The position numbers and the translations under genes are program-made. DNA of 64,000 nucleotides from Candidatus Hydrogenedentota bacterium (GTDB taxonomy: Bacteria; Hydrogenedentota; Hydrogenedentia; Hydrogenedentales; SLHB01), in NCBI GenBank assembly GCA_036769985.1, contig DAIPKA010000011.1, positions 44,818 to 108,817 of the forward strand. The letters are read 5' to 3'. The notes beneath the pieces were generated by a model. The model was not told the origin of the DNA, searched no databases, and worked only from the letters and a program-made list of their open reading frames with translations. Shown piece after piece: positions 9,201-34,375 of this stretch; positions within the stretch are counted from its first letter, which is position 1; each line of letters opens with the position of its first letter.

Positions 9201-10702
9201 TCGGTCGCCTCCGTCGTGCGCGGCGTCGCGCCGATCCTATCAGCCACGATATCTCGGATGGACTCGAACACGATCTCCGCCTTCCGCTCGATGCCGGCGT
9301 TGGTCATGTGACAGATATCGTCGAAACACTCCGATCCTCCACTTAACCGCTCGGCCACCGGGGCGTAGACGGCCCCGACCTCATCGCAAAGTTTCTTGAT
9401 TTCGCGATTGAGTTGATCGAGCGCGCGGCGATATGTCGCAAAGGTAACATACCGGCCGCCCCAATCGCGCATAAACGTGTACTCGAAGTAGTCTCGTTCG
9501 GCGCGCGACAGGCCGGTCTTGGCGGGGACCGCGAAACTGCACAGGACCATTCCGACGCCGGACTGCTGTGCCGCGTTCGCGATCGCGGCCATATGCGCCA
9601 ACGTTGTAGTCTTCGTCAAGCGCGTCACATCCTCGAGGGGCACCAACCACGCGTTGAGGTAGTCGTTCAGCGCCGCCGACCGCCGCACCAGTCGACGCAA
9701 AGGCGTAGCTTCATTCAGGTACACCGGGAACACGCCATGACAGAGATCGTTGACGGCATTGTAGGCCACGAGCAGGTCGGGGTCGAGCGCCAGGAAATCC
9801 GGCAATCGCAACCACTCCTTGAAGACGCTCATACCGGCGATTCCACAGTTGATCACCTCAATGGATTCCGTCTCAAAGGACTCGCGGAGTCTGCGCTCGA
9901 GGAGATTCGGATAGGTGTCCGCGTGCGTGGGGCCTTCTTCGGTTGTCGAGCCACCGATACAGACCACGCGGAACACCCCGGGAGGTTTGGGCAGCACGAC
10001 ATCGTCATCGCGGAATCCCACGTTATTCGTCCAGAAGTCCTTGCCTTCTCGGCTCACGCACGGTTTGTACACGAAGAAGGGCGCTTCCCACACCAAACGC
10101 TCCGACGTCGTGGCACCGGGGCCGGCCGGCTCTGCCACCAACACGGCCGCCGTCTCGCCATCGTGGAGCGGGTAAATTAGGACGGAATCGGCCTCGCCGC
10201 CCACGGATTGCGCATCGCGGGCGAGGATCTCGGGCCGGCCGCTTTCGATGGCCTGAGCCAAGTTTCGCCGGACAATGATGTCCGTGTAGGCACCCACGAT
10301 CTCCTTGAGTTCTGCCGGCGCATCGGTGCTCCACCCCCGGGCATACACGGAACGCAGGTTCGCCGACGCATCGGCAACGACGACGCGAACGCCGTACGAA
10401 TCCGCGAACATGCGTCGTTCAAGATCGGTGAGCCCTTCGAAGACGCTGAGCCGGCGCGATTGCACGGTCAACCGGTCCGCGAAGGCCGGCGGTGTGGGCA
10501 AGGCGTCCCGGGGTGGCGGGGATCCTTCGATATCCTCGCCCGAGGTCCACATCACGGCGTCGCCACGTTCGAGCACCAGGGGATTCGAGCGCTGTATGGC
10601 ATGCCATCGGAACGCGTGATAGCACTCCAGTCCGAGGAAGAGGATCAGCGTCCACAGGAGGGCCAACGACAAGACAAACGCTATACGGGCCGCCCTTCTC
10701 AT
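9197..10702 (-). CDS. membrane-anchored SGNH/GDSL-family hydrolase, paralog 2 (tandem duplicate of 7719-9200)
   Basis: The protein from MRRAARIAFVLSLALLWTLILFL onward aligns with paralog 1 along its length. Shared motifs are FFVYKP, TNNVGFRDDDVVLPKP, VVCIGGSTTEEG, VINCGIAG, YNAVNDLCH and DICHMTNAG. The ATG at 10702 overlaps the TGA of the upstream GT-C gene. The ORF-track start at 11047 lies inside that GT-C gene. Confidence 0.7.
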   Translation of the reverse strand: MRRAARIAFVLSLALLWTLILFLGLECYHAFRWHAIQRSNPLVLERGDAVMWTSGEDIEGSPPPRDALPTPPAFADRLTVQSRRLSVFEGLTDLERRMFADSYGVRVVVADASANLRSVYARGWSTDAPAELKEIVGAYTDIIVRRNLAQAIESGRPEILARDAQSVGGEADSVLIYPLHDGETAAVLVAEPAGPGATTSERLVWEAPFFVYKPCVSREGKDFWTNNVGFRDDDVVLPKPPGVFRVVCIGGSTTEEGPTHADTYPNLLERRLRESFETESIEVINCGIAGMSVFKEWLRLPDFLALDPDLLVAYNAVNDLCHGVFPVYLNEATPLRRLVRRSAALNDYLNAWLVPLEDVTRLTKTTTLAHMAAIANAAQQSGVGMVLCSFAVPAKTGLSRAERDYFEYTFMRDWGGRYVTFATYRRALDQLNREIKKLCDEVGAVYAPVAERLSGGSECFDDICHMTNAGIERKAEIVFESIRDIVADRIGATPRTTEATE

Positions 10703-12897
10703 CGCTTTCCTGAAGAGGCGGTCTCTTTGCGCGCCAGGGCTTCCTGAAGCCCCTCCTGGCCACGAATGTCGCCGGGATCCCACTCGATGGCCTTGCGGAA
10801 GTGCTCGATCGCCGTGTCGAACTCGCCTTTCTCCATGTAGGCCACTCCCAGGCACGTGTGAGACCATGCGTTGCCGGGGATTTCGACAAGCGATTGCTCG
10901 AGGAAGGGAATGGCCTCGTCGTACCGGCCGCGATCGGTGAGTAGCATGGCGAGGTTCACGAGCGACCAGGGATAGTCGTGGGGATCCAGGGCGACGGCCT
11001 TCTCGAAGGCAGGCAACGCGGCCTCGTCGTTGTGCATCTCGCGCCACGACATGCCAATGTACGAATATGCCCTCGAGTACTCGGGATCGATATCGAGCGC
11101 CCGTTCACACGCCGCGATGGCATCCTCGAAACGCTGCCAACGCCAGAAGGCCAGCGCCAGTTCACAGAATTCCCAGGGGCCATTCTCGGCTAAGTCGCCC
11201 GGCTTGGCCAGTACGATTCCATCGGGGTCGCGCATCACTTCGTAGACCAGCACGTGCTGGATTCCGCCGAACTCGCGGAACTGGAAGGTCATGGCTCGGT
11301 CACGAAGGGCCTGTTCAAACGAACGGTTCGGTCCGGCCTCGAAGTATTCGGTACGGATGATGGCCCAGGCCGTGCAGGGGCCTCCCTCCTCGGATGTCGA
11401 CGGCTTGTTAAGACCCACGTAGAAGGCACACTGGTCCGCGAGGACGTCAAACGACGTCGCGTAACCGATGACGTTCGGCGCGGGCCCCATGTTGAAGGTG
11501 AAGATGCGCTTGCAGAGCTCGTCGTGCACGAGGAGCAAGTCGTCGGGCCTGGCCTCCGCTCTGATGAACGCCGCCGCGGACTTCCAATCCGTGTGCTGGG
11601 GCCCGTCGAATACGAGCATCTGTTGGTAACCGTAGACCGCGGCCAAGACAGCCACGGCGACGACCTTGAAGGGCCGGCCGGGGATCCGCATAACCCCGGC
11701 AGCGAGAAGCAGGTACAGCGCCAGCGAACACTGGAGCGTGTAGCGCGGCATGACGCATGGGCGCCACACGCGCGACACCCCGTAGAGGATCACGGGCGGC
11801 ACCACCCACCAGAGCACCAGGAAGAACGTCCACGGCCATCGGCCATCGGGACGCTGGCCCTCGCGCTTGCGCAACGCGTCTCGAATGCTCACCAAACAGA
11901 GACCCAGCGCGGCGACGGCGAATCCAAGGGCGATCCATTTCCCGATCAGTTTGCGACCGGCTACCATGGCCGCGGCGCGCTCCGGCGGAAAGACGCGCTC
12001 CCAGGCCTGCGGCGTTGCCTGGAGCTGGTAGGTAAGGCCGACGCAATCATCCGCGACAACGTCCGCGATGAACTCGGTAGGCGTGGGGAGCCGCATCCAT
12101 GACTCGGTAGATTCGACGGACCAGAAGCGTATCGTGGCCACGTAGACGAGCGTGGGGATCATGATGACCGTGAGCAGGCCAATCCAGGCAACCAGTCTTC
12201 GGAAATCGCGAGGTCGGAACAGGAGGAAGAACAGCCCCTCCACGAACGGCACGAACAGGGCGAAGGGATGCGTCCAGAAGAGGGACAAACTGGCCAGGCC
12301 GTGAAGCGCCCACCACCGCTTCGTTCCGCCCTCGACGAGCCGAATAAAGGTGTACATCGACAGTGCCGAGCACAGTGTCATTAGCCCGTACATTCGGATT
12401 TCGGCGGCGAAATGGGCGTGAATGGGCGACGCAGCCACAAGAAACGCTGCGATGAGTCCGGCGTGGACGCCATACAGGTATCGGCCGGTAACGTAGACCA
12501 CCGGGACAAGGCACAGGCCGATGAGGATGGAGAGCATGCGCAGTCCCGTGGTGGATGGATCGACGTGCTCGTGCCACACGTACTCGAGAACGTAGTAGAG
12601 CGGCATGGTCGCGGGATCCATGCTCCGATTCTGTTTGAGGAAGCCGAGCAAGGAGGGCGCGGTCTCGCGACGGACGGTCTGGTTCCATAGGTCGTAGTGC
12701 GGGGATTCCTTCCAGGTTTGGGGCGGATCGAGGTGAATCATACTGCTGAACTCGTCCCACCACACCGACTCGTCCGCGATTCCGTGAACCCTGACGACCA
12801 GTCCAAGCAGAAGAATGAGGCCCAACGCGACGCGGACAATCCAGACGCGTCGTGGCGATGGCGATTTCGTCGGTGCGCTGTCCGTGGGTTCCGACAC
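10699..12897 (-). CDS. PMT/ArnT-like GT-C membrane glycosyltransferase with C-terminal TPR repeats (TMTC-like), paralog 2
   Basis: The N-terminal domain is polytopic with a VWWDEFSS loop, and the C-terminal repeats are TPR (AxxAIxxFxKAIExDP etc.). The longest ORF reaches 13065, but its first ~55 codons have AT-rich third positions atypical for this genome. A GTG at 12897 preceded by GGAGG with a 5-nt spacer is the more likely start. Confidence 0.7.
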   Translation of the reverse strand: MSEPTDSAPTKSPSPRRVWIVRVALGLILLLGLVVRVHGIADESVWWDEFSSMIHLDPPQTWKESPHYDLWNQTVRRETAPSLLGFLKQNRSMDPATMPLYYVLEYVWHEHVDPSTTGLRMLSILIGLCLVPVVYVTGRYLYGVHAGLIAAFLVAASPIHAHFAAEIRMYGLMTLCSALSMYTFIRLVEGGTKRWWALHGLASLSLFWTHPFALFVPFVEGLFFLLFRPRDFRRLVAWIGLLTVIMIPTLVYVATIRFWSVESTESWMRLPTPTEFIADVVADDCVGLTYQLQATPQAWERVFPPERAAAMVAGRKLIGKWIALGFAVAALGLCLVSIRDALRKREGQRPDGRWPWTFFLVLWWVVPPVILYGVSRVWRPCVMPRYTLQCSLALYLLLAAGVMRIPGRPFKVVAVAVLAAVYGYQQMLVFDGPQHTDWKSAAAFIRAEARPDDLLLVHDELCKRIFTFNMGPAPNVIGYATSFDVLADQCAFYVGLNKPSTSEEGGPCTAWAIIRTEYFEAGPNRSFEQALRDRAMTFQFREFGGIQHVLVYEVMRDPDGIVLAKPGDLAENGPWEFCELALAFWRWQRFEDAIAACERALDIDPEYSRAYSYIGMSWREMHNDEAALPAFEKAVALDPHDYPWSLVNLAMLLTDRGRYDEAIPFLEQSLVEIPGNAWSHTCLGVAYMEKGEFDTAIEHFRKAIEWDPGDIRGQEGLQEALARKETASSGKR

Positions 12898-13068
12898 AGA
12901 GGCCTCCGGTGACGCTACGCCTACAGGACACAAGAACGGCAGCCCCAGGTCGGACCTGCCGCTACGGCCGAGCCATTCTACCAACCTATTCCTTGAAAGG
13001 AATGATCGCATTTGGAATAATGGCGATGCAACAAGACGTGTCTTCCGCGGCCAAGTATCCCACACGAT

Positions 13069-14316
13069 TTGGAGTGCATACGTAGATTGTCTGGTGCTCT
13101 CAGAAATGCGACGCTGGCCGTAGGCTCGGTCCTGCTGGCGTTTGTATTAACACTGGCCGCTGATCACGTGGTGGGCGCCTTTGCCCCCACACCCACCCTC
13201 CCCGGAAGCATGGAACTCCTGTTTCCGCCCAACGCCGATCAGTCTTACGAGAGCCTTGATTTCTCCTACACGGCCCACATCAACTCACTCGGCCTGCGCG
13301 AGCGCGAGATCGGCAAAGAGCGAACAGAGGCATACCGCATCATCGCCATCGGCGATTCCTACACGTACGGATGGGGCGTCGAAAGCGAACAGACCTGGCT
13401 TCGCCTGATCGAAGAGAGCCTTCGCGGCGCAGGACTCAACGTCGAGACCATTAACATGGGCAAGCCCGGGGCTGGTCCTCCCGACTACGCCGATCTGGCG
13501 GAGGAAGTCGTTCCCCTGTTCCGCCCGGATCTCGTCCTCGTCGGCATGCTGCAAGGGAATGACCTCGCCGCGGCCGGTCCCGAAGTGATCGAGGAGGCCG
13601 CCGAGACATTCCTCGATAAGGTCCGTGGGCTCTATCCCCATTCGATCCGACTCATCGAGGACATGCGTCTGAGCCGCGATTACGCCTCGCGCACGCAGGA
13701 GATGCGCCCTCCTCAGAAGAGTTCGGCCGAGGATAACCGCCGTTGGACGGCGAACACGGCCAAGGAGTTCCTCGACGGAATGACGCCCGAGCATCGCGCG
13801 CGGTTCGACGCCTTCGACGATACGGTCAAGGAGGCGTTCCTGGCAGGACGGCTCAATCCGTACATGGTCGACCTGGCCATGCAGAATGCCCGTTTCTATT
13901 GCGGCACCTTGAACCTCGACGATCCCTGGACCCAGACCTGTCTTGAGCGAATGGGACACCACCTGGCCCGGATCAAGCGAGTGGCCGATTCATACGAGGC
14001 CGAGGTGCTCGTGCTGTCCATTCCGGATGGCCCATACGTGAACGCCGCCGCCGTCCGCAACATTCGCCGGGTCGGTTACGAGGTGCCGGACAACATTGTG
14101 GACTCCGACGCGCCGGACACGGCCATCCGCGAGGCCTGCGGCCATGCCGGTGTGCCGTTCCTCACCGTCACCCCTGCATTCAGACAACGCCGAGACAATC
14201 CTGGCCTGTTTTTCGAGCTCGACGGCCATCTGACCGCCGAAGGACACCGCCTGTATGCCGAGTCGCTGGCCCCGCTTCTCCTCGAACGGATCCGGAAACA
14301 CGCGCCGATGCGCTGA
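13069..14316 (+). CDS. membrane-anchored SGNH/GDSL hydrolase, member 3
   Basis: SGNH blocks are present: IIAIGDSYTYGWG (block I), NMGKPGAG (II), QGNDL (III), DGHLTAEGH (V). There is an N-terminal hydrophobic anchor. The annotated start is a TTG at 13069; the exact start is uncertain and the first codons are AT-rich. Confidence 0.65.
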   Translation: MECIRRLSGALRNATLAVGSVLLAFVLTLAADHVVGAFAPTPTLPGSMELLFPPNADQSYESLDFSYTAHINSLGLREREIGKERTEAYRIIAIGDSYTYGWGVESEQTWLRLIEESLRGAGLNVETINMGKPGAGPPDYADLAEEVVPLFRPDLVLVGMLQGNDLAAAGPEVIEEAAETFLDKVRGLYPHSIRLIEDMRLSRDYASRTQEMRPPQKSSAEDNRRWTANTAKEFLDGMTPEHRARFDAFDDTVKEAFLAGRLNPYMVDLAMQNARFYCGTLNLDDPWTQTCLERMGHHLARIKRVADSYEAEVLVLSIPDGPYVNAAAVRNIRRVGYEVPDNIVDSDAPDTAIREACGHAGVPFLTVTPAFRQRRDNPGLFFELDGHLTAEGHRLYAESLAPLLLERIRKHAPMR

Positions 14317-14327
14317 GGCCCTGCAGC

Positions 14328-15503
14328 ATGCCTGGAGATGCCATGGTCGATGCCAATCCGCCACAACGGCCGCCTATGGGATGGAAGCAATCCCTCGTCT
14401 ACGCCCTGTTGCCGGTGATCCTTGCCTTTGCCGTGCTGGAGGCGGCGGCGCGCATCGTTGAGATCTGGAGACCGCCCATAACGGTCGACCTCGGCCAAGG
14501 GTTCGGCCCCGAAAGCCGGCTCTTCGTGCCCAAGCAAGGCCATCCCGCGACCATGGTCACCCATCCCGACAAGACCCTCGCGTTTCGCAACCAGGCCTTC
14601 GAACGTCGGAAGCCGCAGGGGACCATGCGTGTCGTCGCCTTAGGCGGATCGTCCGTGAACTACCTCGACTACGAGTTTTCGGTGCTCAAGGAACGCCTCG
14701 AGGCCGCACTAGCACCCCGGTTCACGAACGTCGAGATCATCAATTGCGGCGGACTCTCGTACGGTAGCCATCGCCTCGTGATTCTCGCCGCCGAGGTCAT
14801 TGCGTACGAACCCGACCTGGTGCTCATCTACTCGGGCCACAACGAGTTCGAGGAAATCCAGCAGCTCGAGTTGGCCGACCTGCGCGCCGTGCCCATCCAG
14901 CGCGCCCTCTCCCACTCGGCCCTGTTCCGCTTCATTCGCGACCAATTCGCCGACCGACGCATTGCCGAACTGGAGGAGGATCGCGATCAGCGGAACCTGG
15001 CAACGTCCGTGCCCGACGCCTCGAAGGCGTGGATGTATCGGTTTTCCGAAGAGGAAATCACGGAACGCATGACGGCGTTCAGGACCAACCTAGGCCGGAT
15101 CATCGAGCTATGCCGGGAGCACCACGTGCCCGTCATCATCGGCACGGTACCCTCGAACCTGATCAAGCCCAGCCTTCCGGGAAAGGACGGACACCGCTAT
15201 CAGGAAGCGGAGGACCTCTTCGGCCGGGGGGAGTTCGAGCGTGGGCTCGCCATCGCACGCGAGGTCTTGCGGACCTCTTCCCCGCGCCATCAGTCCTCCG
15301 ACGAGGAGAACGCCGTAATTCGCGCAGTGGCCAGCGAATACGGCGTGCCACTGGCCGATGTCGAGGCCGCCGTTGTCGAGGCCGAGCCGCACCACGTGCC
15401 CGGCGAGACGCTTTTCAGCGACCACTGTCACCTGAATCCGGCTGGCAACGAGATCCTCCGCCGAGTGTACGAGGCCGAAATCCTCCGCTTGTTCCGGGAA
15501 TAG
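14328..15503 (+). CDS. membrane-anchored SGNH/GDSL hydrolase, member 4
   Basis: SGNH blocks are present: VVALGGSSVNY (I), INCGGLSYGS (II), YSGHNEF (III), DHCHLNPAGN (V). There is an N-terminal TM (LVYALLPVILAFAVL). An alternative start at 14343 (MVDANPP) has a GGAG 6 nt upstream. Confidence 0.65.
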   Translation: MPGDAMVDANPPQRPPMGWKQSLVYALLPVILAFAVLEAAARIVEIWRPPITVDLGQGFGPESRLFVPKQGHPATMVTHPDKTLAFRNQAFERRKPQGTMRVVALGGSSVNYLDYEFSVLKERLEAALAPRFTNVEIINCGGLSYGSHRLVILAAEVIAYEPDLVLIYSGHNEFEEIQQLELADLRAVPIQRALSHSALFRFIRDQFADRRIAELEEDRDQRNLATSVPDASKAWMYRFSEEEITERMTAFRTNLGRIIELCREHHVPVIIGTVPSNLIKPSLPGKDGHRYQEAEDLFGRGEFERGLAIAREVLRTSSPRHQSSDEENAVIRAVASEYGVPLADVEAAVVEAEPHHVPGETLFSDHCHLNPAGNEILRRVYEAEILRLFRE

Positions 15504-17624: not shown

Positions 17625-19073
17625 GTGCACAGACTCTCCTGTGGGCTGGACTTCGGCACGACGAACTCGAGCGTAGCGCTTTCCGACGGTGACGCGACTC
17701 GGGTTCTCGAACTCGATCCAGTCAATGATACGCCGACCTCATTGCCCTCGTTGCTGTACATTACGCGCAAGGGCGAAACCATCGTTGGGCGCGCGGCCGC
17801 CAATGCCTTCATCGAGCGGAACATCGACCGCGAGATTATCCTGCGCCAGGTCGACCTCGGTATCAATATCCAGGGCTATGTGGCTTCCGAGCCAGACAAG
17901 AGCGAGTCGTACCGCCCGCCGGATCCCGACCAGGACACGCCGACCGAAGCAGTGCGCGCCCGCGCCATGGTGGAGGTCAACTCGCCCGGCCGTCTGTTCC
18001 AATCGCTGAAAAGCATGTTGCGGCTGCGGTCCTTCCGGAGCACCGAGGTATTCGGCGAGCAGTATCAGATCGAGCAGCTCACCGCGATGATCCTCCGGCC
18101 CATCAAGGAAGCCGTGGATCGCGTTGCCGGCCAACCGGTAAACTCGGCCGTTTTCGGTCGGCCGGTATGTTTCTCGACCGATCCGGGCGAGGATATTGCC
18201 GCGGAGCAACGGCTCCTGGTGGCGGCCCAATTGGCCGGTTTCGAGGAGGTAGGCTTCTTCTACGAGCCGGTGGCGGCCTGTGTCGAGTACGCCATCGCGA
18301 CGGATCGCAAGCAGCGGCTCATGGTCGTCGATATCGGGGGCGGAACATGCGACGTGTGTGTGATGGAATTTGGGGGCGCACACGGCATTGCCGAGCGGCT
18401 TGCGGAGAGCCGCATCCTCGGTGTGGCCGGTTTGCCGGTGGCCGGCGATGCCATCGACCGCGAGATCATCCGCGAGAAGCTGTTTCCGAGGTTCGGTAGT
18501 TGCGCGCGTTACGGCCCGTCGAACCTGCCGATGCCGCAGTATCTCTACAATCAGATTCTCGATTGGCAGAACCTGTACCGACTGAATACCGAGGAGACGA
18601 TCAACTGGTTGATCGCGGCCGAAGTCAGCTCGGATCAGCCGGAGACCATGCGCGCGCTGCGCTGCCTGATCCAGCGCAACTACGGGTATCCCGTGGCGCG
18701 GGAGGTCGAGGCCGCCAAGAAACGCCTTTCCTACGGCCTCGAGACGGATATCGACATCTACAAAGAAGCCATCCAGATCCATGAGCACCTCGAGCGCGCG
18801 GAGTTCGCCCATATCATCGAGCACACTATCGACAAAATGGCAACCACCATTGAAGAGGCCCTGTCCGCCGCGCAACTCAGTTCCGACGATATCGACTATG
18901 TGCTCACCACCGGTGGAACGAGTCTTGTTCCCGCCATTCTGGATATGATCGGCGGGCGTTTCGGTCTGGACCGGGTGATCCAGCGTGACACCTTCACAAG
19001 CGTTGCGGCCGGGCTGGCGATCGTGGCGCAGTACGCGCAGAAGAACGGGGCCGTGCTCAAGAACGGCCGTTGA
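17625..19073 (+). CDS. Hsp70-family ATPase, nucleotide-binding domain only (YegD-like), no substrate-binding domain
   Basis: Actin/Hsp70 phosphate-1 motif: LDFGTTNS. Phosphate-2: VVDIGGGTCDV. Adenosine motif: LTTGGTSLVPAIL. At 482 aa it is too short to include an SBD. Confidence 0.7.
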   Translation: MHRLSCGLDFGTTNSSVALSDGDATRVLELDPVNDTPTSLPSLLYITRKGETIVGRAAANAFIERNIDREIILRQVDLGINIQGYVASEPDKSESYRPPDPDQDTPTEAVRARAMVEVNSPGRLFQSLKSMLRLRSFRSTEVFGEQYQIEQLTAMILRPIKEAVDRVAGQPVNSAVFGRPVCFSTDPGEDIAAEQRLLVAAQLAGFEEVGFFYEPVAACVEYAIATDRKQRLMVVDIGGGTCDVCVMEFGGAHGIAERLAESRILGVAGLPVAGDAIDREIIREKLFPRFGSCARYGPSNLPMPQYLYNQILDWQNLYRLNTEETINWLIAAEVSSDQPETMRALRCLIQRNYGYPVAREVEAAKKRLSYGLETDIDIYKEAIQIHEHLERAEFAHIIEHTIDKMATTIEEALSAAQLSSDDIDYVLTTGGTSLVPAILDMIGGRFGLDRVIQRDTFTSVAAGLAIVAQYAQKNGAVLKNGR

Positions 19074-19092
19074 ACCGGTTGAGGCACGCGCT

Positions 19093-20145
19093 ATGGCCAA
19101 GGGCTCGAACTACACGTCCGAACGAGCGTTCTTCACGGATTCGGTCTCCGGACTCCGCGTGACGCGCCTGTCTCACTATGCCTGCATCTCGACCAACCTC
19201 TACTTCGAGATGACCTCATTCACGGAAGACGATGCCCATGTCGTCTTCATCTCCCAACGCGGCGCCGGACGCGACGCGCCGTGGGACCTGTTTCGCGTTC
19301 AGACCGATGGGATGGCGCTCGTGCAGATGACCGAACGCGACGACCTCCGGGGCATCGTGGTCTGCCCGGCGATCGGCAAGGTCCTCTTCCAGTCGGAAGG
19401 CGCATTGTTCGGGATGGACATGCTTTCGCTCGAAGAGGAATCCATCGCGGAGATTCCTGGCGTGGTTTGCCGCACCCACGGATATTCGCTGGCCACCATC
19501 GACCGTGCCGGAACAACCTATTTCGGGAATTGCCTCGACCCTAAGGGCGGCGAAGTCATCTTCAAGGTCGACACGGCCTCGGGCGGTGTCGACCCGCTGC
19601 TTCACGCGGAGGCCGTGAACCATCTGCACGTCGATCCCGAGTGTAAGACATTGCATTTCAACATGTTGAACGGCTACGAGGGCCGGGCGTACCTCATGGA
19701 TACGGACGGCGGCCGGGTGCGGCAATCCGGTTTCGAGCGGTTTGCCCATCACACATGGTTCGGCACGACCGGCAAGATGCAGGGCACGCTCCTGCCGCCG
19801 GGAAAAGCCCTCGCCATCCGAGGCGAACGCGATCCGGAACCGGAGATCCTCGTCGAAGGGCGCTACTACTGGCACTCGTCGTGCAGCGCCGACGCCGAAT
19901 GGATCGTCAGCGACACGAACTGGCCTCAGGAAGGGCTGTTCTTACTCCACGTGCCGACCGGCCGCGTGACCTACGTGTGCGATCCGCGGTCGTCGTGTTG
20001 CCATCCTCAGTGGACGCATCCCCACCCGTCGCTGTCGCCCGGCTTGCGGTACGTCTCATTCAACTCGGATCTCACCGGCGTCGGGCAAGTCTACCTGGTC
20101 GAGCTCACCGACGAATTCCTCGCGGCGGCGCGTCAGCCGCGCTGA
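19093..20145 (+). CDS. oligogalacturonide lyase family protein (PL22, Ogl-like)
   Basis: The N-terminus MAKGSNYTSERAFFTDSVSGLRVTRLSH and the C-terminal THPHPSLSPGLRYVSFNSDLTGVGQVYLVEL resemble the enterobacterial Ogl N-terminus (MAKGKQIPLTFETF...VEVTRLT) and C-terminus (THPHPSFTPD...LYLAKV). The ORF-track start at 18985 overlaps the upstream gene, so the ATG at 19093 is preferred. Confidence 0.6.
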   Translation: MAKGSNYTSERAFFTDSVSGLRVTRLSHYACISTNLYFEMTSFTEDDAHVVFISQRGAGRDAPWDLFRVQTDGMALVQMTERDDLRGIVVCPAIGKVLFQSEGALFGMDMLSLEEESIAEIPGVVCRTHGYSLATIDRAGTTYFGNCLDPKGGEVIFKVDTASGGVDPLLHAEAVNHLHVDPECKTLHFNMLNGYEGRAYLMDTDGGRVRQSGFERFAHHTWFGTTGKMQGTLLPPGKALAIRGERDPEPEILVEGRYYWHSSCSADAEWIVSDTNWPQEGLFLLHVPTGRVTYVCDPRSSCCHPQWTHPHPSLSPGLRYVSFNSDLTGVGQVYLVELTDEFLAAARQPR

Positions 20146-20155
20146 CCCGCGTTCC

Positions 20156-21763
20156 CTATCCCAACTCCGGGCCGGCGCTGGCGAAGATCCGGCCCACATC
20201 GCCCGAGCCGGCATCTCCCCCCTTGAACATCCGCATGAACGGCCGCTGCGGCGACAGGCCCAGCGACCGAAGCCATTCGATCCAGGCCCCGGCTCGCGCG
20301 GGCGCGTCGATACCAGCGGTCCGCCCCTCGAGTGCCGCGAAGAGCCGCGAGGCCAGCGCGCGAGCCGTGACGCCATCGCGAGCGATGATCGGCCCGGCCA
20401 ACTCGAAGTGGTGACCGTGGCGGCCCAGGGCATAGCCGGCGACGTCGCCGGACGCGGCCTCGGCCACGAACGCGTACTCGGGGGCCATGCAGAACAACGC
20501 GTCGATGAGTTCGCGACGCGGCGCGCCGAACGCTTCCTCGTCGGTGGCCGCCACCGCCTCGATATCGGCTTCCGTCATGGCGCGGACACGATCCCCCTGC
20601 GGTAGTGTGATCACGGGCATGCACGGCGTGGTCATCCGGACGAGGGGGAACTCGGGCCGGAAGCCCACCTGCTCGTAAACCTTTTGCCCGGCAGGGGTTG
20701 CGTCTAGCTTGACGACGCGGCATCCCGCACAGGCCGCCTCGGCCTGGGCCAGCAGCCTACCCGCGATGCCGCGCCGACGGTGGGCCGGATCGACGATCAG
20801 CATAGCCACCCAACCGACTTCCGTCCCGTACGTGAGCGTGGCCACCGTGCCCACGACCTTTCCCTGTTCCTGGGCGACGAAGCAGCCCCCGTGGTTGACC
20901 GCATAGAACAACCGCCAGTCCTCGATCCGCTGGTTCCAGTCGACCGCCCGCGAGAGCCGTTCGCCGGCGACGAGGTCGCGTTCGGTCATCGGCCGGAGAA
21001 TCGCGGGAGGCTGGGCCGCATACGTGGCATTCTTGTCGAACCACTCGATGCGCTCGCGCGCAGCGGCGGCCAGGTTCTCGCGAATGGAAGCCGTGATAGC
21101 GTGGCCGGCCTCGGCCGAGGCGCCGCGCGGATCGCCCCAGACGCCGTTCGGCCGGAGGTGGCCGAGGCCGAGGTGGTTGAGATCGTTCTGTCGGGCGGAC
21201 TCGATGGCCACTTCAGGAATGACCGCCCCGCAGTCGCCCACGAACTGAGGAAACTGAGCGAGCATGATCGACGTTTCCCAGGCGCCGGCGTGGACTTCGC
21301 CGACACGCAACCGCTGGCCTTCCTCGGATCGGTCGTATTCCCAGTAGTTCAGCAAGACGATCCGGAGCGGTCGCTCGGCCCGGTTGATGTCGCGCACGAC
21401 CGTCGGCAACGCGTAGTTGCCGCCATGGCCGTTCAAGACGATGAGGCGCGTGAAATGCTGGCGTTCGAGTTCGTCGGCGATGTCGCGGAAGATGGCCATG
21501 AAGGTTTCGGGCCGGAACGAGACGCCGCCTCGGAATCCTTCGTGTTCGTAGCTCTGGCCGATGGGCAACGCCGGCAACAGCGCCACGTCGAGATCCTCGG
21601 CGAGTAGCCGGGCGAAGAACTCGGCTTTGAGCGTGTCCGTGGCCAGCGGGAGATGCGGCCCGTGCTGTTCGAAAGAACCGACCGGTAACACGGCCACCGG
21701 ATTCGCCAGCCGCTGCCAAGCCAAGGAGGGTGCGCAACCGTCCACATACGATGATTCGTTCAC
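20156..21763 (-). CDS. creatininase-family amidohydrolase fused to tandem GNAT acetyltransferase domains
   Basis: The N-terminal ~240 aa have creatininase/ArfB/MftE family signatures (LPVGSFEQHGPHLPLATD, VLNGHGGN, AGAWETS). The middle has a GNAT fold with a CoA-binding motif (RRRGIAGRLL). The C-terminus is a second, degenerate GNAT-like domain. Confidence 0.6.
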   Translation of the reverse strand: MNESSYVDGCAPSLAWQRLANPVAVLPVGSFEQHGPHLPLATDTLKAEFFARLLAEDLDVALLPALPIGQSYEHEGFRGGVSFRPETFMAIFRDIADELERQHFTRLIVLNGHGGNYALPTVVRDINRAERPLRIVLLNYWEYDRSEEGQRLRVGEVHAGAWETSIMLAQFPQFVGDCGAVIPEVAIESARQNDLNHLGLGHLRPNGVWGDPRGASAEAGHAITASIRENLAAAARERIEWFDKNATYAAQPPAILRPMTERDLVAGERLSRAVDWNQRIEDWRLFYAVNHGGCFVAQEQGKVVGTVATLTYGTEVGWVAMLIVDPAHRRRGIAGRLLAQAEAACAGCRVVKLDATPAGQKVYEQVGFRPEFPLVRMTTPCMPVITLPQGDRVRAMTEADIEAVAATDEEAFGAPRRELIDALFCMAPEYAFVAEAASGDVAGYALGRHGHHFELAGPIIARDGVTARALASRLFAALEGRTAGIDAPARAGAWIEWLRSLGLSPQRPFMRMFKGGDAGSGDVGRIFASAGPELG

Positions 21764-21903
21764 GGGCCACGCTCCTTTCCTGTGTGCTGCGAGTCATTGT
21801 AGCAAGGCGCGCCGAGCCGGGCGAAACCGATGGCCGCTTATGCTACACTCGTCAGCGCCCCGGCGAGGGCCGGTGGGCGGATGGCCATTTCGGAGCGAAC
21901 GGT

Positions 21904-22941
21904 ATGAAAGCGGCGATTGTCGAGCGTCCCGGTGAGCTGGTGGTTCGAGACGTTCCGGTGCCCGAGGTGGGCGAGTACGGCGTGCTGTGCCGGCTTCTCT
22001 ATGGTGCGACGTGCACCGGTACGGATCGACACATCATTGCCGGCGAAATGCACTTTCCCATTCCGTATCCCTGCGTGCTCGGCCACGAGAGCGTCGGCGT
22101 GGCCGTCGAGGTCGGCCCGCGCGTCCGCCACTTCCGGCCGGGCGATCTCATCACGCGCGTCGGCGCGCCGCCTGACGCCGACGGCCGCTATGGCATCGCC
22201 TGGGGCGGCTACGCGGAGTACGGCCTCGCACAGGACCACCGTGCCATGCGCGAAGACGGACTGCCGCCCGAGCGCTGGCACGGCTCTCGCGTGAACCAGC
22301 GCGTGCCGGACGGCATCGCGCCGGCCACGGCGACCATGATCATCACGTGGCGCGAGACCTTCAGCTACATCACGCGCCTCGGCGTCGGCGCCGGACATGC
22401 CGTCCTCGTGATTGGATCGGGCGGCAACGCCCTCGCCTTTGCCGCGCACGCGCACAATCTCGGCGCCGGGCCAGTGGTCATGGCAGGCCAGCCGGGCCGC
22501 GAGCCCAACGCCAAGGCCGTCGGCGCAGACGCGTTGTTCGATTATCGAGACGCCGATCCCGCCGGAGGCATCGCCGAGGCCTATCCCGACGGATTCGATT
22601 ACCTCATTGACGCCGTGGGCAAACGCGGCCAAGTGGATCGTGTGTTGCCGACGCTCAAGCCGGGCGGCGCCATCGGTATTTACGGCGTAGACGACTTCCA
22701 TCATGTCGCCATCAATCCGCGTCGTGCCAGGGGCTCCTTCACATTCATCGAGAAGGGATATGACGAGGAAGAGGCCCATGCGCGTGTCGTCGGTTTCGTT
22801 CAGGCCGGGGTGCTGGAAGCATCCGCCTGGTTCGACTCGAAGCGCGCCTATCCCCTCGAGGCCATTAAGGAGGCATTCGATGCGCTGGCGCGGCGCGAAA
22901 CGGTGAAGGCCCTCATTCGCTTGTCGTCCGGCCTCGACTGA
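21904..22941 (+). CDS. zinc-dependent alcohol dehydrogenase / MDR superfamily (threonine-dehydrogenase-like)
   Basis: MKAAIVERPGELVVRDVPVPE, a catalytic zinc ligand region GHESVGVAVEVG, and a Rossmann motif VLVIGSGGNALAFAAHA. The ORF-track start at 21730 overlaps the upstream gene, so the ATG at 21904 is preferred. Confidence 0.75.
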   Translation: MKAAIVERPGELVVRDVPVPEVGEYGVLCRLLYGATCTGTDRHIIAGEMHFPIPYPCVLGHESVGVAVEVGPRVRHFRPGDLITRVGAPPDADGRYGIAWGGYAEYGLAQDHRAMREDGLPPERWHGSRVNQRVPDGIAPATATMIITWRETFSYITRLGVGAGHAVLVIGSGGNALAFAAHAHNLGAGPVVMAGQPGREPNAKAVGADALFDYRDADPAGGIAEAYPDGFDYLIDAVGKRGQVDRVLPTLKPGGAIGIYGVDDFHHVAINPRRARGSFTFIEKGYDEEEAHARVVGFVQAGVLEASAWFDSKRAYPLEAIKEAFDALARRETVKALIRLSSGLD

Positions 22942-26503: not shown

Positions 26504-29500
26504 CTAGGGTTGCTCGTCGAGCAACTCGAACTCGATTCGATCGATCCAGACGTTCCGATCCTCGGGCGGCGCGTAGAGATCGTTCATAAACGCGACGCGC
26601 AACACGTGTTCTCCTTCCGGCAGCAGTGTCACGAAGGTTTGCACGTGCCATTGTTCGGACACGCACTCGACTTGGCCAAGCGGCTGCTCGCCCAGTGCCA
26701 CCACTACGCGCGGCCACTCGCCGCCCGCCTCCGTGCCTTTGGTCCGGATCGTGACACGATATCGCCCGGCGGTCGCGCACACGACGGGACCTTCGATGAC
26801 ACCCGTCGAGCCGAGATAAATGTGATCGGCGTCGCGCCGGCAGTTGTTGAGGTTCGGTTGAGGTTCGAGCGTTTCGGCCTCGACAACGTCCGCGGGCCGG
26901 CGAGCGCTGAACCGAGCGCCGAGGCCGTGTAAGAGCGCGCTGTAGAACCGATCCGCGCGCGTAATGTTTCGTCCTACGTTGTCGGTTATCAAACCGTTGA
27001 GCACCACGCGCCCGGCGCCCATGGGCAACTCGAGCACAGCCGGTGGCGAGGTGACCGGCTCGAAAGCGAGTCCGTCCGGCCACGGCGTGATCGCGAATCC
27101 GTCGATCTCGAGGTTACGGTCTTGGGTCTCCGAGTTCGCATCGTTCGCAAAGGCGAGGCCAAGCGCGTGCGGCCCCTTCTCGGCCTCGAAGGCGACCGAG
27201 AAAACTCCTGTTATGCGGCCGTCCACATAGATCGTGCCAAGGGGCCGTCTGTCCAGGCGGGCCTCGACCACGGGATAAACGTCGTCGAAAGGCGTTCCGG
27301 ATGCACGCACACTCAGGATGTACCGGCCCGTTCGAGGGAGGCTGACATTCCAGGTGGCCGTGCCTACGGTGGCCAACACGACCTGGTCTTCGTCGCGGCG
27401 GACATGCGTACCTTCGAGCGTGACGTCATTCTCGGCTTCGCGCCAGGCCTCGGGAGACGGTTCGATGCTTGGCGCAAAGACGTACCGAGCCATATTCAGT
27501 GCGCGCGGCGTCGGACTCCAGTGCCAACCGCTGTGTTCGCCCAACCAGTAAAGGTCTTCGCGGGCAATGGCGTTGACGAGAGCGCTCGTGCCTTCCTCGC
27601 GCGTCACCGCTCCTCGGTAACGCGTCATCGACAGCCGCCAGTTTAGGGCGTCTCGCACCGTTGCGAACACTTCAGGCCGGGGCCGATTCCATAACACAGC
27701 GCCGCCCGCGTCGACGAAGGTGCGCAAGCGGTCCGTGTCCAGTGAGCCGCCGCAATTCTCGTCGAGAATCAGCAGGCCGGTTTCCGGATAGCGCAGCTCG
27801 GTCCAATTATCAAGGGCTGCGGCATCCACGTGCAGGCTCTGCAAACGATCGGCGAGTGGCGGCGCGCCGATGCACCGCGTCCGGCCGGCCGGCGGCGCAT
27901 AGTCCGCGAGATACTGAATCATCCGCTCGAGCAGGATCTGCGCCAGCGGCTCGAAACCGAGTTTCTCAACAACCTGGAACTGGCACAGCATCCACACGCC
28001 GTCGCCGTGCGGCACCTCGACGAGCGGCGCGTGGGCAATGCCTTGAGCCGAGCCCGTCACGACCAGGGCATGGCCGGGGCCGCCGACCGGCCGTTGGTAC
28101 TCATGTACGGTCACCATGTTGTCGCCGCGCCACCAACGCAGGTCGGCATCCGACAGGCCTTCGAGCACCGGGTGCCCGGGCTCCTGGACAAACGCCATGG
28201 TTGACTGCTGCGGCGTCGCGCGGGCCGGAAGCCACGCACCCGCGGCCGGCGCCTGCCCAATCGCCAGGACACGGCCGCCGGCGCCCACCCGCTCGTAAAG
28301 CGCCGCGCCGGCCGCGTTCACCGCGCCGATGACCGGCACATCACCCGCAGCGGCCGGGGTCTCCAGGGCGCCCGGGCCAAGAATCAGTACGCCGTCGCCC
28401 GGCCACGCATCGAGGGCATCGATGCGAACGAAGGCCACGCCGGCTTTGCGCCACGCCTCTTCGAGCGCACGCCGCGGATCGTGCACGTAGAGAGTCACGC
28501 CTGGAAGCGTCCAGCCAACACGACGGGGAAAGACCTCGATGGGCCATGTCTCGGAGAACAGGGCCTCTTCGCCGGCCGCGAGCCCGATCTCGATCCGCAG
28601 CGTCGTACGCACGTCGACGGAAGGCAGTGGGATGGTCAGCGGGATCTCGCGCTGCGCCCCGGACGCAAGATCGAGCGTCTGCCGATCGCGGGACAGCGTT
28701 CCGCGCTCCGACTCAAGACTCCAGGAGAGCTGCGTCTCCGGCCAGTCGCGCAAGCTATCGTTGAACACCCACAGCGTGCGGGCAAGGCGCTCTTCGCTCA
28801 AGAACCGCGCGTCCGACTCGCGAAGGAAGGCCGCCACGGGACGGTACAGGTCGCGCTGGGCACGCCAACACGGATTGGTCTCGTCGAGATCGCCATGCTC
28901 CCTAACCGTCCAAGGAGAGATGCCGCTCACGCCATAGTGCCGGTACGCGAGGATCTGCATGCGCCAACTCTCGGCCTTGGCACGGTCATGATACGCGCGG
29001 AAGTCGGCATAGGCCTGGTCACCGAAGAAGATGGTATCCGGCGCCGGGTCGCAGGCCGGCGCCCACAGGAATTCGCCGATGTACAGTGGTTTCTCGCGAT
29101 TCCAGAAGAAGGTATCGTCGTGCCAGAACATGTTGCCACGCCACGTGGTCGACGGCTCGTCCATCCAATAGGCATCGTTCGGCCAGCAGCGGCGTTCGGG
29201 ATACTCGTTGGGATAGTGTAGTCCAATCACATCCGCCACCCCGCCCGGATCGCCATCGGACTCGAAAGTGATGGGCCGCGTCGGATCGAATTCCTTAACC
29301 AGGCGGCCGAGCTGGGCGAGGGCATCTTCGGCGGGCGAGCCGTCTTTGGCCAGACCGCCCTGAAACTCGTTCTCAAGACTCCACATAACGACAGACGCGT
29401 GGTTGCGGAGATGCCGCACCATGGCGCGCACGTGGTCGGCGTAGTTTGACCAAAAAACCGCATCGCCCAAGCGGTATACGCTATCGTCGTTCCAGATGGC

Positions 29501-30655
29501 CGCCTCCGGGATCATCATTACGCCGAGTTCGTCGGCAACCTCATACCAGAGGCGGTGCCACGGCTGCGTGTGTGTCCGAAAACAGAAGGCGTTCATCGCC
29601 TTGATGCCGCGTAGCCGGGCCTCCACCTCGTCTCGACGCGGCGGCGTCGACGGCGGCCACCACGACGAGGCCAAGAGATGAACCCTGCGTCCATTGAAGA
29701 CAAAGTCGCCACCCTCGCACCATAATTCGCGAAACCCGACGCGTTCGCGGAGCACATCGGCGCCATCGTTCAATCGCACTTCGAGAATGTACAGCTTGGG
29801 GTCGTGCGGCCACCACAGATCGACCTGGGGCTCGGACAGTGTGAGTGTGACGCGGCTGTTCATTCCGGCCGCAACGGTACCGACCGGAACCGACGCAACG
29901 CCCACCGGCTCCCCCGTTACCGCCCACACGCCCGAGGACTCGCGCGGCGATCCATCGTAGGCATAGACTCGCGCCTGGACGTCGGCTGCGAGCGCGTCGG
30001 TAGAGTCGTTGACGACCGCGACGTCTATCTCGGCGCGATTCCCGCGTATCGATGGGCGGAAGGAGAGGTCGTCGAGATGGGCCGCCGGCATGGCCTCGAG
30101 TTCGACGGAATCCCAAATGCCGTAGAGGTCCACGTAGCCGCCGATGGGCGCGAGAACGCGATCGCGCGGTAGGGCGCGCAGTTCGCTACGATTGGTGGCC
30201 GCGCGGACATCGATCCGCTCGCCCTCGTCGAACACGCCCGTCCAATCGTGGACGCCCACCGACAGCTCGTTGGTTTCGCCTGGCCGAATCGCCGCCGTCG
30301 CGTCCACCTCGAAGGCGTCGTAGCCGTTGAAGCACTCGCCGACGCGATCTCCGTTTACCATGACGCGACTCGCGTACTTGACGCCGCCGAAGCGGACCAC
30401 CACGCGTCGGCCCGCCCAGTCCGCAGGCACTTCGAACGCGCGTCGGAACCAGGCACGCTCGTAGTCATGGCCTCGAAGCGTGCCGGGCACCTCGAACTCA
30501 ACCCAGCCGTCCGTAGGCGGCGGAACGTCCAGCGACTCGACCTTGACCATGCGCCACGCGCCATCGAGCGACACCACGGCTCGCGGAGTCGCGGCGGCCA
30601 TTGGCACGAGGAGTAAGGAAAGAATCATGGCGGTCAATGCGATCTTGGCCTGCAT
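26504..30655 (-). CDS. secreted glycoside hydrolase family 2 protein (beta-galactosidase/mannosidase-like) with ~500-aa C-terminal accessory domains
   Basis: It is 1383 aa. There is a signal peptide (MQAKIALTAMILSLLLVPMAAA). The N-terminus has a GH2 sugar-binding fold. The catalytic acid/base region is VVMWSLENEF. A long C-terminal extension looks beta-rich. Confidence 0.75.
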   Translation of the reverse strand: MQAKIALTAMILSLLLVPMAAATPRAVVSLDGAWRMVKVESLDVPPPTDGWVEFEVPGTLRGHDYERAWFRRAFEVPADWAGRRVVVRFGGVKYASRVMVNGDRVGECFNGYDAFEVDATAAIRPGETNELSVGVHDWTGVFDEGERIDVRAATNRSELRALPRDRVLAPIGGYVDLYGIWDSVELEAMPAAHLDDLSFRPSIRGNRAEIDVAVVNDSTDALAADVQARVYAYDGSPRESSGVWAVTGEPVGVASVPVGTVAAGMNSRVTLTLSEPQVDLWWPHDPKLYILEVRLNDGADVLRERVGFRELWCEGGDFVFNGRRVHLLASSWWPPSTPPRRDEVEARLRGIKAMNAFCFRTHTQPWHRLWYEVADELGVMMIPEAAIWNDDSVYRLGDAVFWSNYADHVRAMVRHLRNHASVVMWSLENEFQGGLAKDGSPAEDALAQLGRLVKEFDPTRPITFESDGDPGGVADVIGLHYPNEYPERRCWPNDAYWMDEPSTTWRGNMFWHDDTFFWNREKPLYIGEFLWAPACDPAPDTIFFGDQAYADFRAYHDRAKAESWRMQILAYRHYGVSGISPWTVREHGDLDETNPCWRAQRDLYRPVAAFLRESDARFLSEERLARTLWVFNDSLRDWPETQLSWSLESERGTLSRDRQTLDLASGAQREIPLTIPLPSVDVRTTLRIEIGLAAGEEALFSETWPIEVFPRRVGWTLPGVTLYVHDPRRALEEAWRKAGVAFVRIDALDAWPGDGVLILGPGALETPAAAGDVPVIGAVNAAGAALYERVGAGGRVLAIGQAPAAGAWLPARATPQQSTMAFVQEPGHPVLEGLSDADLRWWRGDNMVTVHEYQRPVGGPGHALVVTGSAQGIAHAPLVEVPHGDGVWMLCQFQVVEKLGFEPLAQILLERMIQYLADYAPPAGRTRCIGAPPLADRLQSLHVDAAALDNWTELRYPETGLLILDENCGGSLDTDRLRTFVDAGGAVLWNRPRPEVFATVRDALNWRLSMTRYRGAVTREEGTSALVNAIAREDLYWLGEHSGWHWSPTPRALNMARYVFAPSIEPSPEAWREAENDVTLEGTHVRRDEDQVVLATVGTATWNVSLPRTGRYILSVRASGTPFDDVYPVVEARLDRRPLGTIYVDGRITGVFSVAFEAEKGPHALGLAFANDANSETQDRNLEIDGFAITPWPDGLAFEPVTSPPAVLELPMGAGRVVLNGLITDNVGRNITRADRFYSALLHGLGARFSARRPADVVEAETLEPQPNLNNCRRDADHIYLGSTGVIEGPVVCATAGRYRVTIRTKGTEAGGEWPRVVVALGEQPLGQVECVSEQWHVQTFVTLLPEGEHVLRVAFMNDLYAPPEDRNVWIDRIEFELLDEQP

Positions 30656-33584: not shown

Positions 33585-34375
33585 TGGACTCCGTCCAGGC
33601 GTTCGCCGAGCAGCGGCGGCGACGCGCTGTAGCACTCCTCGAGATCGATCATGTGGCAGCCGGCGCGCCGGCCTTGGTAGACGCCCTTCACCTGGTAGGC
33701 GACGGGATCCATCGTGATGATGGCCACGGCTACGCCGGTGCCTACCGAGAGGCCGGCGCGATAGGCGTCGAGCATCGGTCCGCGCGCCAGCAAGCGGCTC
33801 GGCCCGGCGGCAACACAGGCCATGACGGCCACGGCGCGCGGGAAACCATCCGCGTCGCGGAAGGCGATGGCGCGCACGGCTCTAAGGCGCCTGAACTTCT
33901 CGAGCACGCGCGGCGGCATGATCGGCGATGCCGAGCGTCCAAACGCCCGTGCCGCGCATCGTGCGCATGCGTAGCCGGCGAGGAGCGCTGTTGGCGATAG
34001 CGTCGATTTCTTGGAGATTTCCTCGATCGCGATCGTTCCGGCGCTGCGTACGCTGGTATAGGCGTTGTACCGGAACAGGGGCTGTTGGTTGATCCAATCG
34101 ATGTGCGGCCCGGTGGTCTCGAAACCTCTAAAGGTTCCCTTAAGGCTCCATGCATCAAGACGGTCATTAAGCACCACGACGCCGACGTTCTCGTTGACGG
34201 CGAGGTTCTTGCGGCTCTTGTTCATGAAGAACTCGCCGAACACCAGCGTGGTATCGTCCCACGGGGCAATACTGATCACCGGAACGCAGTTGGGACGCCC
34301 TTCGCCATCGAGCGTAGCGAGGAACTTTGGCGTCATCTCGCCAGCCAGAACGTCTCTGAGATCAGGCGTTAGCAT
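33578..34375 (-). CDS. PNPOx-like (pyridoxamine 5'-phosphate oxidase-related, FMN-binding split barrel) family protein, possibly two tandem domains
   Basis: It is 265 aa. The N-terminal part (LATLDGEGRPNCVPVISIAPWDDTTLVFGEFFMNKSRKNLAVNENVGVVVLN) resembles general-stress-protein-26/PNPOx split barrels. The assignment is by pattern only. Confidence 0.4.
   Translation of the reverse strand: MLTPDLRDVLAGEMTPKFLATLDGEGRPNCVPVISIAPWDDTTLVFGEFFMNKSRKNLAVNENVGVVVLNDRLDAWSLKGTFRGFETTGPHIDWINQQPLFRYNAYTSVRSAGTIAIEEISKKSTLSPTALLAGYACARCAARAFGRSASPIMPPRVLEKFRRLRAVRAIAFRDADGFPRAVAVMACVAAGPSRLLARGPMLDAYRAGLSVGTGVAVAIITMDPVAYQVKGVYQGRRAGCHMIDLEECYSASPPLLGERLDGVQP

Follow-up and report, generated by a model that had tools for sequence, protein, structure and literature searches.

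We describe a gene that joins what appear to be two enzymes in a single chain. It lies in a 64,000-nucleotide stretch of a Candidatus Hydrogenedentota genome (contig DAIPKA010000011.1, positions 44,818 to 108,817; hereafter the window), where positions 20156 to 21763 of the reverse strand encode a creatininase-fold hydrolase fused to a tandem GNAT acetyltransferase. Its conserved residues and its many homologues show that this fusion gene encodes a genuine, evolutionarily conserved polypeptide, with the active sites of both halves predicted to be intact. Its domain architecture is a previously uncharacterised one, built from known families.

Gene and domain architecture

Translation of the interval meets no internal stop and contains the motifs FEQHGPHLP, LNGHGGN and RRRGIAGRLL by which the fusion was first noticed. 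The G+C content at third codon positions is 0.82, 0.85 and 0.85 in the three parts of the gene, and this uniformity indicates a continuous coding signal. The features of the gene are as follows.

20156..21763, reverse strand: complete coding sequence, 535 amino acids plus stop, GTG start; creatininase-fold hydrolase fused to tandem GNAT
21772..21780, reverse strand: Shine-Dalgarno-like GGAAAGGAG, 8 nucleotides 5' of the GTG start, read from the sequence
21062..21706, reverse strand: Creatininase (PF02633) domain, residues 20-234, from Pfam, fold match and conservation
21635..21670, reverse strand: EQHGPHLPLATD, with putative metal ligands Glu32, His34 and Asp43, from alignment to the creatininase structure 3a6e; invariant in 37 homologues
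21416..21427, reverse strand: HGGN, with putative metal ligand His113, from creatininase alignment and conservation
21275..21292, reverse strand: HAGAWE, with putative catalytic His158 and metal ligand Glu163, from creatininase alignment and conservation
21002..21031, reverse strand: short linker, residues 245-254, after the long helix (217-244) with which the hydrolase domain ends
20624..21001, reverse strand: GNAT lobe 1, residues 255-380, from PF00583, PF13508 and PF13673
20762..20779, reverse strand: RRRGIA (residues 329-334), predicted acetyl-coenzyme A (acetyl-CoA) pyrophosphate-binding motif of the form R/Q-x-x-G-x-G/A, read from the sequence
20180..20551, reverse strand: GNAT lobe 2 (PF18014), residues 405-528, from Pfam, without a canonical CoA motif
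20159..20173, reverse strand: invariant C-terminal GPE[LF]G (residues 531-535) at the extreme end of the protein, from the alignments; also kept in stand-alone relatives

Pfam supports this layout with wide margins. The Creatininase match (residues 20-234) scores 189.6 bits against a cut-off of 31.3 (E 8e-56) and spans positions 14-237 of the 238-position profile; Acetyltransf_1 (PF00583) matches residues 281-368 with 58 bits against 20.7, with PF13508 and PF13673 matching too; and Acetyltransf_18 (PF18014), a second GNAT-fold lobe, matches residues 405-528 with 63.6 bits against 22.7 (E 1.9e-17). The original prediction had read the protein as a complete creatininase-fold domain followed by a canonical GNAT domain and a degenerate second one, and the Pfam matches bear this anatomy out. 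Residues 1-19 form a family-specific N-terminal extension in which Trp16 is invariant. An AlphaFold2 model, built on an alignment of 37 fused homologues, has a mean pLDDT (predicted local distance difference test) of 88.6 and a pTM (predicted template-modelling score) of 0.60; the single domains are modelled with confidence, and the mutual orientation of the two halves is uncertain. In the linker, Tyr248 and Gly250 are nearly invariant and model confidence is lower (pLDDT about 66).

Conservation and distribution of the fusion

The fusion is shared by a family of its own. In 5.8 billion protein clusters we found about 74 full-length proteins of 526-562 amino acids, 38-57% identical to the query, all with Creatininase, GNAT and PF18014 domains in constant order, and a HMMER search of 1.84 billion 50%-identity cluster representatives returned about 35 full-length (at least 500 amino acids) fused representatives, below which the list held close stand-alone relatives of each half, namely creatininases of about 255 amino acids (scoring at most 393 bits) and tandem GNATs of about 285 amino acids (at most 375 bits). 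By source name the fused proteins belong to Planctomycetota (including Sedimentisphaeraceae), Kiritimatiellia, Lentisphaeria and an uncultured Armatimonadetes, and are thus mostly from the Planctomycetes-Verrucomicrobia-Chlamydiae (PVC) group; their database names, 'GNAT family N-acetyltransferase' or 'creatinine amidohydrolase', are automatic. Domain order and linker length are fixed and linker residues nearly invariant down to 38% identity. An architecture kept to this depth in dozens of proteins argues that selection maintains the join and that no error of sequencing or assembly produced it.

The contrary explanation is that two neighbouring genes were joined by a frameshift, a sequencing error or a chimeric assembly; the original prediction had warned that either of the first two would undo it. 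We found no such join, and the same fusion is conserved in dozens of lineages. The artefact is ruled out by a protein identical to the 535-residue fusion on independent metagenome contigs (P0001), as well as by homologues from varied samples and phyla with a continuous architecture and by the uniform third-position G+C content, and we give it a vanishingly small probability.

Other long relatives of the hydrolase proved to be of different construction. Proteins of about 520 amino acids were considered as carriers of a diverged GNAT domain and rejected, since they are tandem creatininase-creatininase proteins; a separate family of this kind (P0079-P0097, about 515-550 amino acids) keeps the EQH/EAH and H..E motifs in both halves. 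Another set (P0102, P0104, P0107 and P0110-P0119, about 780-813 amino acids) carries its creatininase domain at the C-terminus behind a region with only faint QueC/DUF6395 matches, and the names given to these proteins by JGI contain '7-cyano-7-deazaguanine...'. A scan of a genome collection with whole-protein alignment, keyed on the generic pattern NGHGGN, returned mostly single-domain creatininases of Streptomyces, whose context is uninformative, and only one fused locus (L002).

The hydrolase half

Six residues carry the assignment of the N-terminal half. Glu32, His34, Asp43, His113, His158 and Glu163 are invariant in the 37-sequence alignment, and in a pairwise alignment to Pseudomonas putida creatininase (3a6e) they fall on Glu34, His36, Asp45, His120, His178 and Glu183. 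In the creatininase structures, Glu34, His36, Asp45, His120 and Glu183 are the binuclear metal ligands and His178 is the catalytic histidine. The metal-binding His, Asp and Glu residues, whose absence the original prediction had named as fatal to its proposal, are thus all present and invariant, together with the catalytic histidine. A Foldseek search of the PDB agrees, matching the hydrolase half to the creatininases 1j2t/3a6x and the structural-genomics 'putative creatininases' 3lub and 3no4 (target TM-score 0.66-0.72, E about 1e-12 to 1e-15). The N-terminal half therefore appears to be a binuclear-metal amide hydrolase of the creatininase/MftE/ArfB fold with a full set of ligands and its catalytic histidine. 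One difference touches the active site itself: the HGGN motif is invariant in the fusion family where creatininase has H-Y-E-N, so that the creatininase-specific Tyr121 and Glu122 are absent.

The protein falls short of every curated enzyme model. Five NCBIfam equivalogs match below their cut-offs: the peptidase MftE (TIGR03964), the best curated match, with 112.5 bits against 172; creatininase (TIGR04448, EC 3.5.2.10) with 94.1 against 235; the 3-dehydro-scyllo-inosose hydrolase IolN (NF041098) with 56.3 against 245; the formamide hydrolase ArfB (NF033501) with 26.2 against 180; and the mycothiol synthase MshD (TIGR03448) with 25.9 against 163.1. With all five missed by a wide margin, the fusion falls in no enzyme family with a known reaction, while its domain matches place it in the creatininase superfamily, the GNAT superfamily and the tandem-GNAT family PF18014. 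In the literature searched, we found no paper that links creatininase or creatinine amidohydrolase with GNAT, and the 12 papers that contain both creatininase and acetyltransferase do not name the two together in title or abstract. The sub-threshold scores and this negative both agree with the original statement that the fusion is not a described enzyme.

The acetyltransferase half

The C-terminal half is conserved as well. In the fused proteins WNQ (276-278), Arg329, LDATPAG (353-359) including Asp354, Tyr363 and Arg376 are invariant, as are Arg416, Arg448, Arg507 and Arg511 of lobe 2 and the terminal GPE[FL]G, and Gly332 of the RRRGIA motif is nearly invariant in the 37-sequence alignment. 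In a second alignment of 30 fused and stand-alone proteins, WNQ, LDA, Tyr363, Arg376, Arg416, Arg448, Arg507, Arg511 and GPExG stay invariant, with Arg329 at 90% or more. If other GNATs are a guide, Asp354 and Tyr363 may serve as general base and general acid. The five invariant arginines around the predicted cleft for the acceptor hint that the latter bears a carboxylate or some other anionic group; an amino acid or amino-sugar acid would be an example.

Both sequence and structure lead to the same relatives. A sequence-profile search of the PDB aligned entry 3ddd with residues 254-525 (E 6.5e-22), and the Foldseek search placed 3ddd first for the C-terminal half (E 1e-18, target TM-score 0.84 over both lobes), with further tandem-GNAT matches to MAB_4324, 3tt2, the glucosamine N-acetyltransferase of Clostridium acetobutylicum, VipF and Eis. 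We accordingly assign this half to the YitH/3ddd type of tandem GNAT, in which lobe 1 carries the acetyl-CoA motif and lobe 2 is degenerate with conserved arginines and a conserved tail.

The acetyltransferase half belongs to a much larger family of stand-alone tandem GNATs. A metagenome scan seeded with motifs of the GNAT half collected 80 loci, 6 of them fused and 74 with stand-alone tandem GNATs (31-44% identity), proteins of about 280 amino acids that share WNQ, LDAxxxG, the tyrosine, the arginines and the C-terminal GPE[FL]G with the fusion. The stand-alone genes have conserved neighbours, namely an MFS transporter (23 loci), an NAD-epimerase/NmrA-like protein (27) and a DHDPS-like protein (21), and sometimes Amidohydro_2 and GFO_IDH_MocA proteins as well. 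The island of MFS transporter, GNAT, NAD-epimerase/NmrA-like and DHDPS-like genes is seen at L098:3481-15023 and at 26 other metagenome loci (L090, L096, L101, L102, L107, L108 and others); in L098, where the transporter is of the monocarboxylate type, it further includes a NanM/YjhT-like mutarotase, a glycoside-3-dehydrogenase-like protein, an IolO-like TIM barrel, a GFO_IDH protein and an SDR. Such an island looks like an uncharacterised catabolic pathway for a sugar acid or amino-sugar acid, which suits an arginine-rich acceptor pocket; for the fusion this is a lead only, from a paralogous family.

The hydrolase half has stand-alone relatives too. The closest genomic one, 44% identical over residues 2-248, is the first of two creatininase paralogues (9995-10771 and 12209-12979) in a Candidatus Brocadiia metagenome-assembled genome (L003:9127-12979). 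The two flank a 441-residue gene product with only a faint strictosidine-synthase-like match. A relation between the protein beside these paralogues and the PL22-like neighbour of the fusion in the window was considered and rejected, the two being unrelated.

Genome neighbourhoods

In the window the fusion gene is convergent with a gene at 18985-20145 on the forward strand (386 amino acids), and on its other flank it is divergent from a gene for a Zn-dependent alcohol dehydrogenase. The original prediction had placed the fusion between a PL22 lyase and an alcohol dehydrogenase; the positions are roughly right and the dehydrogenase is confirmed, but the match of the first neighbour to the 386-position PL22 profile covers positions 1-122 only (E 6e-11), and with the match limited to the first third of the profile the assignment as an oligogalacturonate lyase is weak. 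Neither neighbour carries functional weight, because neither is conserved beside the homologues; the alcohol dehydrogenases of the window and of the homologous locus L131, considered as possible orthologues, were rejected as such at 24% identity. The mechanically listed start of the dehydrogenase reading frame (21730-22941, forward strand) overlaps the start of the fusion gene, and its homology begins near MKAAIVERPG at about 21901, which leaves a divergent intergenic region of about 137 bp. There a sub-threshold Hammerhead_II match (21837-21895, reverse strand; 22.6 bits against a gathering threshold of 37, E 0.15) is most likely due to chance. No riboswitch or other RNA element was found upstream of the fusion gene in the window or beside the fused gene in nine homologue loci; an FMN (flavin mononucleotide) riboswitch at L082:15351-15491 (reverse strand, 118 bits) lies 5' of a DHBP synthase gene, on the strand opposite to the fused gene and convergent with that gene, to which it is unrelated.

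Farther out, the window encodes a MASE1-PAS-GAF hybrid histidine kinase, a GH2-CBM60 protein, an Hsp70-like protein, an ECF sigma factor and several GDSL esterases. A span of less than 8 kb contains four genes for GDSL/SGNH-type esterases (7719-9200, 9197-11047, 13069-14316 and 14328-15503), which adjoin genes for two PMT_2+TPR glycosyltransferase-like proteins (4029-6266 and 10699-13065) and a GT2-GtrA protein (6456-7580). The GH2 protein (26504-30655, reverse strand) has 1383 amino acids and two CBM60 modules at its end, and an Amidohydro_2/UxaC-like protein and a glycyl-radical (PFL-like) enzyme are encoded at 32292-33635 and 35329-37722 on the same strand. Together, the GH2-CBM60, UxaC-like and glycyl-radical genes suggest an anaerobic or facultative polysaccharide degrader.

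Around the homologues, the fused gene keeps varied company.

L082: AP_endonuc_2, DegT aminotransferase, Amidohydro_2, then the fusion
L088: M55 D-aminopeptidase directly upstream, fusion, unknown gene
L085: fusion, D-Ser-dehydratase-like, glyoxalase
L131: 2-hydroxyacid dehydrogenase, class-III aminotransferase, M20, alcohol dehydrogenase, GFO_IDH, fusion, FAA hydrolase
L086: TauE and P5CR, fusion, TauD
L172: AraC, fusion, MGMT
P0009: hybrid kinase, fusion, HisG
L002: response regulator, fusion, RpiR, heparinase-like

Amine-handling enzymes (aminotransferases, peptidases and amidohydrolases) are frequent near the fused genes, and none of them recurs as an orthologue; GFO_IDH_MocA and AP_endonuc_2 genes do recur, yet they are ubiquitous in these phyla. 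URO-D-like (uroporphyrinogen decarboxylase/methyltransferase-like) and AraC genes stand upstream of the fusion in only two distant loci (L082:1-4490 and L172:28-7941).

Possible functions of the fusion

A conserved fusion hints that amide hydrolysis and N-acetylation are consecutive steps of one pathway, and we tentatively favour, with somewhat less than an even chance of its being right, a sequential model in which the hydrolase and then the GNAT act on one small molecule. The hydrolase would first cleave an amide, either opening a cyclic amide (lactam) or stripping an N-formyl, N-acyl or peptidyl group, and so expose a primary amine, which the GNAT would immediately N-acetylate with acetyl-CoA as donor. 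Capping by acetylation would make a reversible or unfavourable hydrolysis irreversible, or would exchange one N-acyl group for acetyl. The MFS carboxylate-type transporter, DHDPS-like and epimerase-like neighbours of the stand-alone GNATs would fit a metabolite that is small and anionic. The original prediction had suggested a coupled deacylation and reacylation, or a transacylation, on an amino sugar or a peptide; such chemistry may apply, and neither a conserved neighbourhood nor a split-gene pair nor a riboswitch points to a substrate.

Several observations weigh against this model. Comparison of 14 independent neighbourhoods of fused homologues brought out no recurring partner gene, and since the surroundings of the fused gene change from each examined lineage to the next, they assign it to no pathway. 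In a split-gene (Rosetta-stone) test, a creatininase gene was present in none of the 74 stand-alone GNAT loci and this GNAT in none of 79 stand-alone creatininase loci; because the separate halves are never found side by side, the fusion itself is the sole evidence for functional coupling. With a pTM of 0.60 the inter-domain geometry is uncertain, so that the two active sites need not face each other, and the order of the two reactions is a guess.

Much the same observations speak for two independent activities, joined for co-expression or assembly and acting on different substrates, or for the GNAT as an acetyl-CoA-sensing or regulatory appendage of a hydrolase hexamer. Close stand-alone relatives of both halves are abundant and never neighbours, fused genes make up only a small part of the GNAT family (6 of the 80 loci), and the domains are poorly oriented in the model. 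Against this, the fusion persists to 38% identity over several phyla with its order and linker length fixed and its linker residues nearly invariant, and the presumed catalytic residues of the GNAT are all kept, although one would expect them to be lost from a module with a regulatory role only. We consider this explanation unlikely.

The order of events might also be reversed: acetylation by the GNAT would come first, and its N-acetylated product would then be cyclised or hydrolysed by the creatininase-fold domain, in effect a deacetylase coupled to an acetyltransferase for homeostasis or proofreading. Reaction order is not set by domain order alone, and the freely reversible ring opening and closure catalysed by creatininase (EC 3.5.2.10) counts in favour of such a scheme. 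An acetyltransferase and a deacetylase for the same group would nevertheless make a futile cycle that wastes acetyl-CoA, and no data point specifically to it; we think it improbable.

Similarly improbable, in our estimation, is a role in peptide maturation, in which an MftE-like peptidase would cut a ribosomal peptide or protein and the GNAT would acetylate the new N-terminus, as in protein processing or the biosynthesis of peptides that are made on ribosomes and modified post-translationally (RiPPs). MftE, the best curated match of the hydrolase half, is a creatininase homologue that cleaves a peptide (PMC10885120); among PDB entries the family profile also picks up Naa30, ARD1 and RimI, which are N-terminal acetyltransferases; and peptidases lie near some homologues (M55 in L088, M20 in L131, S9 in L174). 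The MftE score is nonetheless under its 172-bit cut-off, the neighbouring peptidases are of another family at each locus, and the Naa/RimI matches reflect a similarity common to GNATs in general and are much weaker than that to 3ddd. Nor do RiPP genes, such as a radical-SAM maturase or a precursor-like small open reading frame, recur near the fused genes in the window and the homologue neighbourhoods, and none of the mftABCDEF genes (including those for the radical-SAM protein MftC and the precursor MftA) was found among the scanned window neighbours or the 14 homologue neighbourhoods.

Returning to the sequential model, a more specific form of it can be imagined. In such a 'cleave-and-cap' enzyme, of a kind so far undescribed, the amidase would free an unstable or thermodynamically disfavoured amine and the fused tandem GNAT would trap it as the N-acetyl derivative, with acetyl-CoA driving the reaction; the first step might open a lactam such as 5-oxoproline, or take an N-acyl group other than acetyl off a neuraminic-acid-like amino-sugar acid. 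So detailed a proposal is unlikely to be right as it stands.

Relation to known enzymes

Each half has well-known relatives, and each comparison soon reaches a limit. Like the C-terminal half of the fusion, 3ddd, a putative acetyltransferase from Pyrococcus horikoshii, has an active-looking first lobe and a degenerate second one; unlike the fusion, both 3ddd and the stand-alone YitH/PF18014 family are without a hydrolase domain, identity to 3ddd is only about 20%, and this structural-genomics entry has no assigned substrate. With the creatininase of P. putida (1j2t/3a6x) the hydrolase half shares its fold (TM-score 0.66-0.68), the five metal ligands and the catalytic histidine, but identity is about 26%, Tyr121 and Glu122 are found only in creatininase, and creatininase has no GNAT domain. 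The mycofactocin peptidyl-dipeptidase MftE has an active-site motif of the H-G-G-N type in common with the fusion and shows that an enzyme of the creatininase fold can act on a linear amide (PMC10885120); it is a single-domain protein, unlike the fusion, near which the window holds no mycofactocin genes.

A precedent for joining a hydrolase to a GNAT on one class of substrate is found in 4zm6, a fungal GH3 beta-N-acetylglucosaminidase with a GNAT glucosamine N-acetyltransferase region, and a precedent for a tandem GNAT that acetylates a free sugar amine in 5kf1, the C. acetobutylicum enzyme. In 4zm6, however, the hydrolase is a glycosidase and not an amidase, the GNAT similarity of both is distant (structural matches at 12-13% identity), and nothing in our data on the fusion points to a sugar substrate. 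The mycothiol enzymes MshB and MshD, a metal-dependent de-N-acetylase and a two-lobed GNAT, resemble the pair joined here, and the MshD equivalog gives its weak match. MshB, however, is of the LmbE family and not of the creatininase fold, the catalytic lobe of MshD is the C-terminal one, and the two are separate proteins acting on non-consecutive steps.

Significance

The fusion does not surprise as a new system or fold would. It is a tractable, soluble enzyme and a good target for substrate discovery. The members of this architecture and their closest stand-alone relatives on both sides are without an assigned substrate, even though both superfamilies are well known. If the 'cleave-and-cap' proposal were true, it would reveal a new metabolic solution of glycan-degrading PVC bacteria and provide the first function for the large stand-alone YitH-like GNAT family in the MFS/DHDPS-like/epimerase-like islands. 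More generally, the substrate, once found, would add a reaction to the few known chemistries of the creatininase fold, those on creatinine, formamidopyrimidine, the mycofactocin peptide and diketo-inositol, and would probably annotate hundreds of stand-alone GNATs of the YitH/3ddd type.

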